A DNA stretch of 7,242 nucleotides from IMG/VR virus record IMGVR_UViG_2609460053_000006, one strand, 5' to 3'. The position numbers were made by a program, and so were the translations under genes. Positions 1,811-7,242 of this stretch are shown one piece after another (within the stretch, counting starts at the first letter, position 1; each line of letters begins with the position of its first letter). The notes beneath the pieces were generated by a model. It saw only the letters and a list, made by a program, of their open reading frames with translations, made no database searches and had not been told where the DNA came from. The DNA comes from a virus (lineage: Duplodnaviria > Heunggongvirae > Uroviricota > Caudoviricetes).

Positions 1811-2410
1811 ATGCGTAAACTTTATGCCGCCATTTTGTCCGCAGCCATTTGTCTGGCCGTATCCGGTGCGCCTGCATGGGCGTCTGAACATCAGTCCACG
1901 CTGAGCGCGGGGTATCTTCATGCCTCGACGAACGTTCCCGGCAGCGATGATCTGAACGGGATTAACGTGAAATACCGTTATGAGTTTACGGACACACTGG
2001 GGCTGGTGACGTCATTCAGCTATGCAGGAGACAAGAATCGCCAGCTTACCCGTTACAGCGATACCCGCTGGCATGAAGATTCCGTGCGTAACCGCTGGTT
2101 CAGCGTGATGGCGGGGCCCTCTGTGCGCGTGAATGAATGGTTCAGTGCGTATGCGATGGCGGGCGTGGCTTACAGCCGTGTGTCGACTTTTTCCGGGGAT
2201 TATCTCCGCGTAACTGACAACAAGGGGAAAACGCATGATGTGCTGACCGGAAGTGATGACGGTCGCCACAGCAACACGTCTCTGGCGTGGGGGGCTGGCG
2301 TGCAGTTTAACCCGACCGAATCCGTGGCCATTGATATTGCTTATGAAGGTTCCGGCAGTGGTGACTGGCGCACTGACGGTTTCATCGTGGGTGTCGGTTA
2401 TAAGTTCTGA
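1811..2410 (+). CDS. lom: Outer membrane protein Lom (Ail/Lom family beta-barrel), phage moron
   Basis: 199-aa ORF with SD GAGAGG (1800-1805) 5 nt before ATG 1811. N-terminal signal peptide [25 protein letters not shown]-terminal aromatic residue (..GVGYKF) typical of outer-membrane beta-barrels. Sequence matches my recollection of lambda Lom; position directly after J. Confidence 0.9.
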
Positions 2411-2463: not shown

Positions 2464-2474
2464 GTGGGGTGAAT

Positions 2475-5400
2475 ATGGCAGTAAAGATTTCAGGTGTACT
2501 GAAAGACGGCACAGGAAAACCGGTACAGAACTGCACAATCCAGCTGAAAGCAAAACGTAACAGCACCACGGTGGTGGTGAACACGCTGGCCTCAGAAAAT
2601 CCGGATGAAGCCGGGCGTTACAGCATGGACGTTGAGCACGGTCAGTACAGCGTTATTCTGTTGGTGGAGGGATTCCCGCCATCACATGCCGGGACCATTA
2701 CCGTGTATGAAGATTCCCGACCCGGTACGCTGAATGATTTTCTCGGTGCCATGACGGAGGATGATGCCCGTCCGGAGGCACTGCGCCGTTTTGAGCTGAT
2801 GGTGGAAGAGGTGGCGCGTAACGCGTCCGCGGTGGCACAGAACACGGCAGCCGCGAAGAAGTCAGCCAGCGATGCCAGCACATCAGCCCGTGAGGCGGCA
2901 ACCCATGCGACTGATGCTGCAGGCTCAGCACGCGCAGCCAGCACGTCAGCCGGACAGGCCGCGTCGTCGGCTCAGTCAGCGTCTTCCAGCGCAGGATCGG
3001 CATCAACAAAGGCTACTGAAGCATCAAAAAGTGCTGCCGCTGCAGAGTCCTCAAAAAGCGCGGCGGCCACCAGTGCCGGTGCAGCAAAAACGTCAGAAAC
3101 GAATGCGGCAGCGTCACAACAATCAGCCGCCACTTCTGCATCCACCGCGACTACGAAAGCGTCAGAAGCAGCCTCCTCAGCCCGGGATGCGGCGGTTTCA
3201 AAAGAGGCGGCAAAATCATCAGAAACGAACGCATCCTCGAGCGCCAGTAGCGCAGCTTCCTCGGCAACGGCGGCAGCAAATTCCGCGAAGGCGGCAAAAA
3301 CGTCCGAGACGAACGCTAAGTCTTCTGAGACGGCAGCGGAACAGAGTGCCTCCGCAGCAGCAGACTCAAAAACAGCGGCTGCATCATCTGCCAGCGCCGC
3401 GTCAACAAGTGCCGGGCAGGCCTCAGCCAGTGCCACCGCTGCCGGAAAGTCGGCAGAAAGTGCTGCATCGTCTGCTTCAACAGCCACAACGAATGCTGGC
3501 GAAGCCGCTGTACAGGCCAGCGCAGCCGCGAGGTCAGCTTCCGCAGCGAAGACATCCGAGACGAACGCGAAAGCGTCGGAAACCAGCGCAGAATCCTCAA
3601 AAACGGCTGCCGCATCATCCGCCAGTTCGGCGGCGTCATCGGCATCATCTGCGTCTGCTTCAAAAGATGAGGCGACCAGACAGGCGTCAGCAGCGAAGGG
3701 CAGCGCCACGACAGCATCCACGAAGGCGACAGAGGCAGCTGGCAGTGCGACGGCGGCAGCACAGAGCAAAAGTACGGCGGAATCCGCGGCAACGCGCGCC
3801 GAGACAGCGGCAAAACGGGCAGAGGATATTGCATCCGCCGTGGCGCTTGAGGATGCGAGCACGACGAAAAAGGGGGTAGTACAGCTCAGCAGTGCGACCA
3901 ACAGTACGTCTGAAACGCTGGCGGCAACGCCAAAGGCAGTAAAATCAGCCTATGACAATGCAGAGAAACGTCTGCAGAAAGACCAGAACGGCGCTGATAT
4001 ACCCGATAAGGGACGCTTCCTGAACAACATTAACGCGGTCAGTAAAACAGACTTTGCTGATAAGCGCGGTATGCGTTATGTGCGGGTTAACGCTCCTGCA
4101 GGTGCAACATCTGGAAAATATTACCCTGTTGTTGTTATGCGTTCTGCTGGCTCAGTAAGCGAACTGGCATCAAGGGTCATTATCACCACGGCAACGCGAA
4201 CCGCAGGCGATCCGATGAATAACTGCGAGTTTAACGGATTTGTTATGCCTGGTGGCCGGACTGACAGGGGGCGTTATGCTTATGGAATGTTCTGGCAATA
4301 TCAAAACAATGAACGAGCCATCCACTCAATAATGATGAGTAATAAGGGCGATGATTTGCGCTCTGTGTTCTATGTTGATGGCGCTGCTTTCCCTGTTTTT
4401 GCGTTTATCGAAGATGGCCTGTCAATATCCGCACCTGGTGCTGATCTGGTTGTTAATGATACGACCTATAAGTTTGGGGCAACAAATCCGGCGACTGAAT
4501 GTATCGCGGCGGACGTTATCCTTGATTTTAAGAGTGGGCGTGGTTTTTATGAGTCTCATTCGTTAATCGTTAACGATAACTTGTCGTGCAAAAAACTTTT
4601 TGCCACAGACGAAATTGTAGCGCGTGGTGGTAATCAGATTCGAATGATAGGTGGGGAGTATGGTGCATTATGGCGTAATGATGGCACTAAAACTTACCTG
4701 CTGCTTACCAATCAAGGTGATGTTTATGGTGGCTGGAATACATTAAGACCGTTTGCTATTAATAACGCAACCGGCGAACTGATTATTGGAACCAAACTGT
4801 CCGCAAGTCTGAACGGTAATGCATTAACAGCAACAAAGCTGCAAACGCCAAGACTGGTTTCTGGTGTTGAGTTTGATGGTTCCAAAGATATTACTTTAAC
4901 CGCCGCGCATGTGGCTGCTTTTGCCAGAAGGGCAACGGATACATATGCCGATGCGGATGGTGGCGTTCCCTGGAATGCCGAATCAGGCGCTTACAATGTC
5001 ACCCGCTCTGGCGACAGCTATATTCTGGTTAACTTCTATACCGGAGTCGGAAGTTGCCGGACCCTGCAGATGAAGGCGCATTACAGAAATGGAGGTCTGT
5101 TCTACCGTTCCTCAAGAGATGGCTATGGTTTTGAGGAAGACTGGGCAGAAGTTTATACCTCGAAAAATCTTCCACCAGAAAGCTACCCAGTCGGCGCACC
5201 AATCCCGTGGCCATCAGATACCGTTCCGTCTGGCTATGCCCTGATGCAGGGGCAGACTTTTGACAAATCTGCATACCCGAAACTTGCAGTGGCTTATCCG
5301 TCAGGCGTTATTCCTGATATGCGTGGCTGGACGATTAAGGGCAAGCCCGCCAGTGGTCGTGCCGTATTGTCTCAGGAACAGGACGGCATTAAATCGCACA

Positions 5401-5873
5401 CCCACAGCGCCAGCGCATCCAGTACGGATTTGGGTACGAAAACCACATCGTCGTTTGATTACGGCACTAAATCCACGAATAACACCGGGGCTCATACGCA
5501 TAGTCTGAGCGGCTCTACAAGCTCGGCTGGAGCACACTCGCACGTTGATGGGCGCAGGTTTAATACAAGCACTTTTAAAGACACCTATCAGTATGGTTCT
5601 ACAGCTGTCGGAAGTAACTCATACCAGGTACAAGGGGCGGTTGGTCTGGGCGTTGGTACGATGGCGAATACGAACTCTGCTGGCGCGCACACCCACTCAC
5701 TGTCCGGCACTGCTGCAAGCGCAGGCGCACACGCACATACTGTCGGTATTGGTGCACACACGCACTCCGTTGCGATTGGTTCACATGGACACACCATCAC
5801 CGTTAACGCTGCTGGTAACGCGGAAAACACCGTCAAAAACATTGCATTTAACTATATTGTGAGGCTTGCATAA
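2475..5873 (+). CDS. stf: Side tail fibre protein Stf, intact long form (1132 aa from ATG 2475; the track ORF uses in-frame GTG 2469)
   Basis: N-terminus [26 protein letters not shown] matches my recollection of lambda Stf; GGGGTG lies just upstream of ATG 2475. Contains a long Ala/Ser-rich repeat region, a [28 protein letters not shown] fibre-repeat motif, and a C-terminal His-rich HxH region ([45 protein letters not shown]...GAHTHS...) shared by lambda Stf / T4 gp37-type fibres. Stop TAA 5871-5873. Confidence 0.88.
2811..3861 (+). repeat. Degenerate in-frame tandem repeats encoding the Ala/Ser/Thr-rich low-complexity shaft of Stf
   Basis: Recurrent nucleotide unit aaaacgtcagaaacgaatgc and variants at about 3087, 3213, 3297 and 3548, encoding AAK(T/S)SETNA; surrounding sequence is GCN-rich alanine codons. 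Spacing is irregular (43, 27 and 84 codons). Confidence 0.7.
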
Positions 5874-6457
5874 TGGCATTCAGAATGAGTGAACAACCAC
5901 GGACCATAAAAATTTATAATCTGCTGGCCGGAACTAATGAATTTATTGGTGAAGGTGACGCATATATTCCGCCTCATACAGGTCTGCCAGCAAACAGCAC
6001 CTATATTGCACCGCCAGATATTCCTGCTGGCTTTGTGGCTGTTTTCAACAGTGATGAGGCATCGTGGCATCTCGTTGAAGACCATCGGGGTAAAACGGTT
6101 TATGACGTAGCGTCAGGGGGCGAGTTATTTATTTCTGAACTCGGTCCGTTACCGGAAAATGTTACCTGGTTATCGCCGGAAGGGGAGTTTCAGAAGTGGA
6201 ACGGCACAGCCTGGGTGAAAGATGCAGAAGCAGAAAAACTGTTCCGGATCCGAGAGGCGGAAGAAATAAAAAACAGCCTGATGCAGGTAGCCAGTGAGCA
6301 TATTGCGCCACTTCAGGATGCTGTAGATCTGGAAATCGCAACGGAGGAAGAAACCTCATTGCTGGAAGCCTGGAAAAAGTATCGGGTGTTGCTGAACCGT
6401 GTTGATACATCAACTGCACCTGATATTGAGTGGCCTACGAACCCTGTCAGGGAGTAA
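5873..6457 (+). CDS. tfa: Tail fibre assembly protein Tfa (chaperone for Stf)
   Basis: 194-aa ORF; SD TGAGG (5860-5864) 8 nt upstream; ATG overlaps the stf stop (TAATG). Sequence [34 protein letters not shown]... matches my recollection of lambda Tfa and sits immediately 3' of stf. Confidence 0.9.
6293..6370 (+). repeat. Direct repeat copy 1 (tfa 3' module); copy 2 is at 7165-7242
   Basis: agtgag[c/t]atattgcgccact[t/g]caggatgctgtagatctggaaatcgcaacggaggaagaaa is shared with 2 mismatches over 61 nt, and similarity continues with more mismatches to the window end. Same orientation and same reading frame in both copies. Confidence 0.85.
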
Positions 6458-6470
6458 TCATTGGGATTAT

Positions 6471-6520
6471 GCCGCAGCACGTCTTAAGCAAGAACGTGCT
6501 GCGGTTGGATGCTATTTTTT
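6471..6520 (+). terminator. Hairpin between convergent genes, probable tfa terminator (possibly bidirectional)
   Basis: Inverted repeat GCCGCAGCACG (6471-6481) / 13-nt loop / CGTGCTGCGG (6495-6504), then a T7 run at 6514-6520 about 10 nt after the stem. It lies between the tfa stop (6457) and the stop of the reverse-strand gene (6512-6514). The U-tract is not directly adjacent, so confidence is moderate. Confidence 0.4.
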
Positions 6521-7003
6521 CCCTGAAGCGGAAAACATTACTACAGTACCTTGAACCTTGGTTTTAACATTCTCGAAATGCTCTGAGAGTATATGTGTTA
6601 AGCCTTCTTCGGAATCTTTTGTGTTTGAAAAGATGCCTTTGGAATCAAATTGACCATGTAACGCCGCGGGATAAGGTTCAAAAACATCATGGCTAATTTT
6701 ATGTTTAATTTTTGATTCCCCAGCCCTTGTAGATGCCGCGTTCAGGCTAGCTTCGTTCAAATCCATTAAAGATATCAGACTACTCTCAGGTACGTGAGTA
6801 AGGTAAAACCCAGTTCCAACACCAATATCCAGATGGTTGTTACCTACATGTTCCAGAAAGTGTGGAAGAAGGTGTTCCTTTGTAGGACATCCCCATGCAA
6901 GCCGATTTGATACTCCCAAAACCCACCAGTCATAAAGCTTTAGGGTAAGTGGTGTGTAAATTTTAGCCCCATCATCTGTGTTTTTTTTCATTGATTTCAC
7001 CAT
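6512..7003 (-). CDS. Short class I SAM-dependent methyltransferase-like protein (Rossmann-fold core only; possibly truncated) on an AT-rich accessory island
   Basis: 163-aa reverse-strand ORF. Motif I HLDIGVGTG (verified by reverse-complementing 6808-6835), acidic post-I residue in LISLMDLNEASL, motif II/III-like HDVFEPYP...GQFDSKGIFSN, and an N-terminal YDWW..SNRLAW element resembling UbiE-type methyltransferases. Markedly AT-richer than flanking tail genes. Start ambiguous: ATG 7003 has no SD, while in-frame ATG 6991 is preceded by GGTGA. Only about 100 aa follow motif I, shorter than typical class I enzymes. Confidence 0.55.
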   Translation of the reverse strand: MVKSMKKNTDDGAKIYTPLTLKLYDWWVLGVSNRLAWGCPTKEHLLPHFLEHVGNNHLDIGVGTGFYLTHVPESSLISLMDLNEASLNAASTRAGESKIKHKISHDVFEPYPAALHGQFDSKGIFSNTKDSEEGLTHILSEHFENVKTKVQGTVVMFSASGKK

Positions 7004-7032
7004 GTTATAGTTTTATTTGTGAATTAAATCAA
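7004..7032 (-). promoter_or_regulatory. Candidate sigma70 promoter for the reverse-strand methyltransferase-like gene
   Basis: On the - strand: TTGATT (complement of 7027-7032), 17-nt spacer, TATAAC (complement of 7004-7009), inside an AT-rich divergent intergenic region. The predicted start site would fall near 6997, which favours ATG 6991 as the true start. Sequence pattern only. Confidence 0.25.
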
Positions 7033-7059
7033 TTATGGCGATGAATTACAAGGGGTTAA

Positions 7060-7242
7060 ATGCTGCCGCAGCATAGCGATATTGAAATAGCCTGGTATGC
7101 TTCGATACAGCAGGAGCCGAATGGCTGGAAGACCGTCACCACACAGTTCTACATCCAGGAATTCAGTGAGTATATTGCGCCACTGCAGGATGCTGTAGAT
7201 CTGGAAATCGCAACGGAGGAAGAAAGATCGTTGCTGGAGGCA
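7060..7242 (+). CDS. Second tail-fibre-assembly-like gene, N-terminal 61 codons (runs off the 3' end of the window)
   Basis: ATG 7060 preceded by SD AAGGGG (7050-7055); open to the window end. Translation [61 protein letters not shown] has a novel N-terminus, then becomes near-identical to Tfa residues [25 protein letters not shown] (nucleotides 7165-7242 vs 6293-6370). Confidence 0.7.
   Translation, partial: MLPQHSDIEIAWYASIQQEPNGWKTVTTQFYIQEFSEYIAPLQDAVDLEIATEEERSLLEA

Follow-up and report, generated by a model that had tools for sequence, protein, structure and literature searches.

A shortened methyltransferase gene in a lambdoid late-region cassette is probably a decayed allele of the widespread ybcY family

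Introduction

Among described prophage genes, the closest counterpart of the gene considered here is ybcY of the DLP12 prophage of E. coli K-12, annotated as a pseudogene, where the gene order is tfaD', the frameshifted methyltransferase, tfaX', appY, ompT and envY; in other strains the prophage end adjoins ompT, envY, ybcH and nfrA. The RpoD holoenzyme promoter given for K-12 ybcY is TTGATT-17-TATAAC (Shimada et al., PMC3946193), and H-NS was flagged in the K-12 ybcY/tfaX spacer on the basis of in vitro data (PMC3946193). Apart from that promoter/H-NS table entry, the mentions of ybcY that we found in the literature are as a positional landmark and as a mutant without effect on Hha toxicity, the latter in the sole screen that mentions the gene (PMC2408971). 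We found no functional study of ybcY in the literature, and our search on methyltransferase, tail fiber assembly and moron returned nothing.

The full-length gene is also present in 14 records of isolated or induced phages, and intact copies are carried by isolated temperate phages such as ev243, 2G7b and the PhiR series. In ev243 the methyltransferase (gp26, YP_009910063.1, equivalent to WP_000239881.1) lies in an accessory zone that separates the tail genes from int and that also encodes an alpha/beta-hydrolase and OmpT. Such a gene resembles the morons lom and bor in being a late-region insert of distinct composition, with its own promoter and hairpin, that is dispensable for virion assembly; lom and bor, however, encode envelope proteins with known phenotypes, whereas the methyltransferase is a cytoplasmic-type enzyme with no reported phenotype.

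Here we describe a relative of ybcY in a 7,242-bp stretch of phage DNA (hereafter the window). An earlier sequence-only reading of this DNA had drawn attention to a short reverse-strand gene with a methyltransferase signature, and had considered that it could be a lysogenic-conversion enzyme, a defence or anti-defence methyltransferase or a degraded remnant.

Results

Layout and composition of the window

The window, which is contig JFFO01000013.1 of the E. coli draft assembly GCA_000599825.1, covers the last part of a lambdoid late operon. It comprises the 3' part of J (14-1741), lom (1811-2410), the side tail fibre gene stf (2469-5873) and the tail fibre assembly gene tfa (5873-6457, plus strand, 194 aa), which forms the upstream flank of the island of interest, matches phrog_105 (E 6e-99) and Caudo_TAP Pfam models, and is annotated as "tail fiber assembly protein" in near-identical genomes. 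The methyltransferase ORF follows on the minus strand (6512-7003), with 163 aa from its first ATG and 159 aa from its second (6991). The downstream flank is a plus-strand, tfaX-type ORF resembling the C terminus of Tfa (7060-7242; phrog_2341, E 4e-42), of which the window holds the first 61 codons before the contig ends (positions 1-61 of the 88 in phrog_2341). Its intact length is 88-101 aa, with 89-aa and 101-aa versions at loci L014, L015, L001 and L008, and elsewhere it has been annotated as a partial tail fibre assembly protein. The description of a reverse-strand ORF between two tfa-type genes was therefore borne out by the phrog_105 and phrog_2341 flanks, and an accessory gene at this position after tfa is already documented in the form of K-12 ybcY. 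Incorrect was the statement that it is the only gene in the window outside the tail-fibre programme, as lom is also an accessory gene.

The island itself (6458-7059) had been called AT-rich and foreign, and its composition agrees with that: it is the lowest-GC stretch, at 39.9% GC relative to 52.0% overall, and a GC content as low as this is found in just 0.7% of the 602-bp segments of the window. The same tendency is seen in GC3, which is 0.335 in the methyltransferase ORF vs 0.44 in tfa, 0.49 in stf and 0.61 in lom, and the spacer from which the methyltransferase gene and the tfa-like ORF diverge (7004-7059) is more AT-rich still at 26.8% GC. No structured RNA known to Rfam was found in the island, the sole match above a gathering score being IS009, inside tfa.

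A cassette with its own promoter and hairpin

The proposal that the gene has its own promoter was confirmed. A sigma-70 promoter, TTGATT-17-TATAAC, lies at 7032-7004 on the minus strand; it is an exact match to, and identical with, that documented for K-12 ybcY, was reproduced in none of 200 shuffles, and is exact in 48 of 71 viral contigs that carry the gene. The -10 hexamer directly borders the first ATG, which makes a transcript start near 6997 likely and the second ATG the probable start codon; the homologues and the PHROG 2132 profile likewise begin at the second Met. Judged from these sequences, the true product is probably 218 aa for the intact parent described below and 159 aa for the window allele. 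A second, weak promoter-like site is found at 7059-7032 on the same strand. The K-12 spacer in which H-NS was flagged is homologous to 7004-7059. We would expect the parent to be transcribed independently of the late operon, with H-NS probably keeping its expression low.

A strong hairpin (6471-6505) lies between tfa and the methyltransferase gene, which converge on it, with perfect 11-nt arms (6472-6482 and 6494-6504), MFE values of -28.6 and -25.4 kcal/mol and z scores of -3.67 and -3.93. The sequence-only reading had named it a terminator hairpin; the hairpin stands, and the canonical terminator does not, as a scan of 6380-7242 found no intrinsic-terminator pattern and the T-run, out of position on the plus strand, is missing from the minus strand. 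Nonetheless, the hairpin is probably the end of the late-operon transcript. It lies to the left of the methyltransferase gene in 62 of the 71 viral contigs and stays with the 3' end of the cassette at loci whose upstream gene differs; it also aligns with the final 32 positions of the CssrB model in Rfam, at a score below gathering.

Taken together, these elements constitute a self-contained cassette: the hairpin, the minus-strand gene, a sigma-70 promoter for that gene within a spacer of 27% GC, and the small tfa-like ORF. Depending on the feature, this setting (tfa 3' end with hairpin, reverse gene, promoter, tfaX-type ORF) recurs in 56-68 of the 71 viral contigs, and the layout of the window also matches that of K-12 and other E. 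coli genomes. The cassette is bracketed by two copies of an 89-nt direct repeat, D1, which share 89% identity and derive from tfa 3' sequence: the left copy (6281-6369, plus strand) is tfa 3' coding sequence and the right copy (7153-7241, plus strand) runs to the window end. In E. albertii, a module of the tfa 3' end, its stop codon and the hairpin recurs after the downstream tfa-like ORF. We infer from the bracketing tfa 3' repeats that the cassette is able to move between prophages by homologous recombination, in which case modular exchange from prophage to prophage would take place at tfa 3' ends.

Identity of the methyltransferase gene

The ORF contains motif I (GxGxG) of the class I SAM-dependent methyltransferases, HLDIGVGTG, at residues 57-65, and the Pfam methyltransferase domain alignments begin at residue 58, within it. 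In an alignment of 32 homologues, H57, D59, G61, G63, G65 and D81 are invariant, so that the SAM-binding signature and acidic residue noted earlier are genuine features of the family. D81 is the end of a model strand (76-81), which places an acidic residue at the end of beta2 as expected for class I enzymes, and by analogy with the family it would bind the ribose hydroxyls. A UbiE-like N-terminal element had also been suggested, but this is a resemblance of pattern only, and the UbiE/COQ5 Pfam family is absent among the matches of the window protein.

The parent of the gene is WP_000239881.1, PHROG 2132, the K-12 ybcY gene: a protein of 222 aa (218 aa from the second ATG) which in complete E. 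coli genomes is encoded by a 669-bp CDS annotated as "class I SAM-dependent methyltransferase". The family has a mean column identity of 64%. Outside a single gap, the window protein is 98-100% identical to the intact form (protein P0002), from which it differs by that 59-aa gap and two or three substitutions, depending on the reference allele. Its match to phrog_2132 (E 4e-104) falls into two separated stretches, the first of which stops at profile position 117, and it fails full-length coverage of the 218-position profile. The window protein is also below every Pfam gathering score in five families (at best 18.6 bits vs 27, for Methyltransf_25), whereas the 222-aa parent passes those of Methyltransf_12 (35.9 vs 30), Methyltransf_23, Methyltransf_25 and Methyltransf_11. 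These scores agree with the earlier judgment that the protein is too short for a complete class I methyltransferase, and the full-length homologue that was called for does exist and is widespread.

An internal 177-bp deletion

Why is the ORF short? Pairwise alignment with L001 gives near-identity apart from one gap of 177 nt, with an in-frame junction at 6639/6640 whose position is ambiguous by 1 nt, and the best matches in complete E. coli genomes cover 1,547 bp for a 1,370-bp query. In the protein alignment, residues 122-180 of the 222-aa protein are removed and D120-S121 is joined to K181. The ORF is thus short because it is a common 222-aa methyltransferase gene with an exact in-frame deletion of 177 bp. 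As both gene ends are kept and the missing segment is internal, the suggestion of a degraded remnant holds, although not in the form of a 5' fragment of a longer gene. Between the breakpoints there is 1 nt of microhomology and a weak similarity of 8 of 13 positions; repeat slippage, which we considered as the cause of the deletion, is not established by them.

The deleted segment contains 15 of the 53 family-invariant columns of the 32-homologue alignment. Most of beta4, the invariant LHCLPG loop (within FYLLHCLPG), the helix at 139-148, beta5 and the helix at 169-180 are lost. What is kept is the SAM-binding half, beta1-beta3, with motif I, D81 and H105-D106, plus the C-terminal helix and beta6-beta7. 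It had been asked whether the C-terminal strands are missing; they are retained, and it is the beta4/beta5 region that has gone.

Predicted structures of the parent and the deleted form

AlphaFold modelled the full-length parent with all seven strands (pLDDT 90.9, pTM 0.87), namely beta1 56-60, beta2 76-81, beta3 99-104, beta4 119-125, beta5 149-160, beta6 202-210 and beta7 213-221, and with helices at 139-148, 169-180 and 191-199. For the deleted form, modelled at equal alignment depth, pLDDT was 70.3 and pTM 0.62, values that express the confidence of AlphaFold and are not an assay of stability, and the N-terminal helices were less confident. A compact core was predicted at residues 41-120 (pLDDT 70-88), and a small sheet was still proposed, with KGIF in place of beta4. 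Nevertheless, the seven-stranded sheet of the family (order 3-2-1-4-5-7-6) is incomplete in the window protein. Since beta4 and beta5 are central to the sheet and also form walls of the substrate pocket, a protein without most of this region would be unable to adopt the family fold and would be catalytically dead. From the predicted structures and the conservation pattern, we consider that it is almost certainly inactive.

Abundance of the gene and rarity of the allele

A 40-nt control probe inside the gene matched 3,799 of 5,426 complete E. coli genomes, at a total of 4,796 places and as many as four in one genome. The 40-nt probe centred on the deletion junction had no match in the same 5,426 genomes, in a megablast search whose 28-nt seed meant that only a contiguous junction was able to seed a match. 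Similarly, a 33-nt junction sequence was absent from viral and metagenome contigs, whereas at least 120 viral contigs contain its intact counterpart. Among protein records, the deleted product comes solely from contig JFFO01000013.1 of assembly GCA_000599825.1, as opposed to 6,589 members in the intact cluster. All 71 assessable viral contigs encode the intact 218-aa protein, but these contigs were selected by the intact left breakpoint and are consequently uninformative on the deletion in the window.

Other lesions of the gene are on record. In-frame deletion alleles with different endpoints are represented by proteins P0004, P0016/P0023, P0041, P0012, P0028 and P0092, and there are also frameshift alleles, among them P0021 (445 members) and the K-12 copy. 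As far as these sequences indicate, the gene is usually intact, yet repeatedly decaying.

What kind of enzyme is the intact parent?

The best Foldseek match of the parent is a bacterial phosphatidylethanolamine (PE) N-methyltransferase (8ys9), in a structural ranking that forms a flat plateau. The folds nearest to it are those of PE N-methyltransferase, JHAMT, phosphoethanolamine methyltransferase and C-methyltransferases, the 50-60 top structural neighbours are small-molecule, lipid or tRNA methyltransferases, and the best PDB profile matches are JHAMT and UbiG. Identity to the parent is 13-21% for the PE N-methyltransferase 8ys9, JHAMT 7ec0, the Plasmodium phosphoethanolamine methyltransferase 3ujc and UbiG 4kdr, and the PmtA NCBIfam model NF045882 gave 15.6 bits and did not reach its cut-off of 390. 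Given those low identities, the flat plateau and a PmtA score so far below cut-off, the match to solved structures indicates a fold class and not one family.

The family was found at 493 loci among species-representative genomes, in taxa that include Enterobacterales (Yersinia, Proteus, Erwinia and others), Pasteurellaceae, Pseudomonas, Xanthomonadales and Oxalobacteraceae. Outside E. coli prophages the gene is typically isolated and chromosomal, or else beside an integrase. At 80 loci from many genera, none of the neighbouring genes is conserved from one genus to another, and synteny was seen only within Pseudomonas and within Proteus. On the strength of its sequence, predicted fold and gene neighbours, the intact parent appears to be a stand-alone class I methyltransferase of the small-molecule type, and the enzyme would then methylate a small molecule or a lipid, not DNA.

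Discussion

We conclude, with a probability of about 0.8, that what lies at 6512-7003 is a decayed ybcY-family allele of a known cassette-borne accessory methyltransferase, functionally a pseudogene. The comparison with K-12 illustrates this well. The location and orientation of K-12 ybcY match those of the window gene: it too has a tfa gene or fragment on one side and a tfaX-type ORF on the other. It is the same gene, its promoter is identical to that of the window allele, and it is inactivated, as the window copy almost certainly is. The two copies differ in how this came about and in what surrounds them: in K-12 the gene is frameshifted and the upstream tail genes have been lost, whereas in the window there is a 177-bp deletion and the J 3' part, lom, stf and tfa are kept. 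With the intact parent (WP_000239881.1; gp26 in ev243), the window has the hairpin, the promoter and the tfa-like ORF in common; what the window allele is without are residues 122-180, a passing Pfam score and a confident seven-strand model. The window allele is, then, an ordinary decayed gene and not a new system, and the accessory gene from which it derives is one that is already known.

Could the deletion be an artefact of assembly or sequencing in a draft genome, the strain itself carrying the intact 222-aa gene? The allele occurs in just one 7,242-bp draft contig, both ends of which lie in repeated prophage sequence, the presence of up to four gene copies in an E. coli genome complicates short-read assembly, and the junction, which has as little as 1 nt of microhomology, is absent from the complete E. 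coli, viral and metagenome collections. The breakpoints, however, have no repeat able to collapse an assembly graph, the loss is of exactly 177 nt with clean flanks, and comparable rare in-frame deletions with other endpoints exist in other assemblies, which makes real deletions in this gene plausible. We regard an artefact as unlikely, and the deletion in the window as probably real. If it is real, might the short protein still be a working methyltransferase of minimal size, or a SAM-binding protein that has taken on a new task in lysogenic conversion or regulation? With its open frame and intact promoter, the window allele may well yield a protein, and one with motif I, D81, H105-D106 and the compact predicted core. 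But that protein has lost two strands from the middle of the sheet, two helices and 15 invariant residues, the LHCLPG loop among them, every Pfam gathering score is failed, and the allele is unique against thousands of intact copies of a gene in which many other inactivating lesions are found. Such lesions indicate neutral decay, and a functional short form seems to us highly improbable.

Decay of the window allele leaves the question of what the intact gene does. That it is a DNA methyltransferase serving self-protection, defence or anti-defence was a natural thought for a prophage-borne gene in an accessory slot, and PADLOC did return one weak match for the full-length protein (mad2, E 0.029, 11 bits), although this was its only match and there was none for the window protein. 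Nothing else points in that direction. By direct reading, the motifs [DNS]PP[YFW] and PCQ are absent from both the 222-aa and the 163-aa sequences; the 218-aa protein is modelled as a bare Rossmann domain with no target-recognition domain; no restriction, nuclease or specificity partner is encoded in the window, in the E. coli, phage, Enterobacter, Salmonella and Erwinia contexts or at the 80 loci; the top structural neighbours act on small molecules, lipids or tRNA; and close homologues stand as isolated genes on the chromosomes of Enterobacter, Erwinia, Pseudomonas and others. We therefore consider a DNA-modifying role extremely unlikely, and with no significant PADLOC match, catalytic motif or partner gene behind it, the defence or DNA-modification idea for the ybcY-family gene can be dropped. 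A different suggestion is that the intact parent is a lysogenic-conversion enzyme which methylates a host lipid head-group or a small metabolite. The Foldseek match to a PE N-methyltransferase is consistent with it, as is the accessory zone of ev243, shared with the envelope factors OmpT and Lom, and yet we would offer so specific a role only as a speculative and rather doubtful one. If it were true, the window allele would be a natural knock-out and a useful comparison.

Reading the ORF as a decayed ybcY-family allele, we find the short methyltransferase of the window explained: the gene is one that thousands of genomes have in their annotation, and this copy has a rare deletion within it. 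RefSeq WP_157834380.1 should be read as that deleted allele and not as a distinct short methyltransferase. The intact family, in turn, is a widespread prophage enzyme, present in about 70% of complete E. coli genomes, and what it does is a modest question that lipidomics or metabolomics could approach.

Alleles and copies of the methyltransferase gene

Different in-frame internal deletions of the methyltransferase gene that lies on the reverse strand of the island (6512-7003) were found in several other E. coli assemblies. The alleles P0004, P0012, P0016, P0023, P0028, P0041 and P0092 have lost from 19 to approximately 72 aa, and the majority of these are singletons, which may be either real deletions or assembly errors. 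Two further copies of the gene, at the compared loci L016 and L025, share 99% identity with that of E. coli and are found on short contigs of metagenome-assembled genomes that carry the labels Bacillus sp. and Planococcaceae; most likely these represent E. coli prophage DNA that entered those genomes as binning contamination.

Repeat, RNA-family matches and doubtful reading frames

Each edge of the island carries one copy of a perfect 10-nt direct repeat, TGCCGCAGCA. The left copy (6470-6479) belongs to the left arm of the hairpin that follows tfa, and the right copy (7064-7073) spans codons 2-5 of the tfa-like ORF, a placement that could reflect either a recombination scar or chance. The same hairpin, 3′ of tfa, contains a segment (6472-6503, forward strand) which aligned to the Rfam model for CssrB, a chromosomal sRNA of Shigella, over the final 32 of its 180 positions (149-180), at 36 bits and thus short of the gathering score (76). 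The match suggests that hairpins of this type act as transcript 3′ ends elsewhere.

The Rfam search of the window also returned a full-length forward-strand match to IS009 (RF02111), which is listed in Rfam as an E. coli candidate sRNA family. This match (6216-6414; 227.8 bits vs. a gathering score of 117) lies wholly within the tfa coding sequence, and a second, partial one (7083-7242, forward strand; 65 bits), truncated by the contig end, falls in the downstream tfa-like ORF. The IS009 family may be nothing other than a model of conserved tfa 3′ coding sequence.

Some of the reading frames are themselves doubtful. A forward-strand ORF of 45 aa (6430-6567) overlaps the hairpin together with the 3′ ends of the two genes on either side of it, tfa and the methyltransferase gene. 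It is annotated in RefSeq genomes as "hypothetical protein" (WP_001309429.1), its equivalent in a K-12 record is labelled "nucleocapsid protein" (WP_071592174.1), and a PHROG profile search gave no match to it; it is probably a spurious call. The long ORFs (335 aa and 309 aa) that our scan of the window detected across the Ala/Ser-rich repetitive part of stf (2850-3900), in alternative frames or on the complementary strand, are probably spurious as well; the source record itself calls one such ORF (245 aa) as a gene.

Accessory genes of the region

A second accessory gene of the window is lom (1811-2410, forward strand), which encodes an Ail/Lom outer-membrane beta-barrel and has a GC3 of 0.61, the top value among the genes measured. 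Full genomes and phage ev243 have, beyond the methyltransferase gene and the tfa-like ORF, a gene for a 494-aa alpha/beta-hydrolase (7854-9338 at L001, the aligned locus with an intact methyltransferase gene, and 2971-4455 at L008, another compared locus) and then ompT, and together these genes make up an accessory cluster with the tail genes on one side and int on the other. An alpha/beta-hydrolase of unrelated size is also found downstream of the Enterobacter homolog of the methyltransferase, which may be coincidence.
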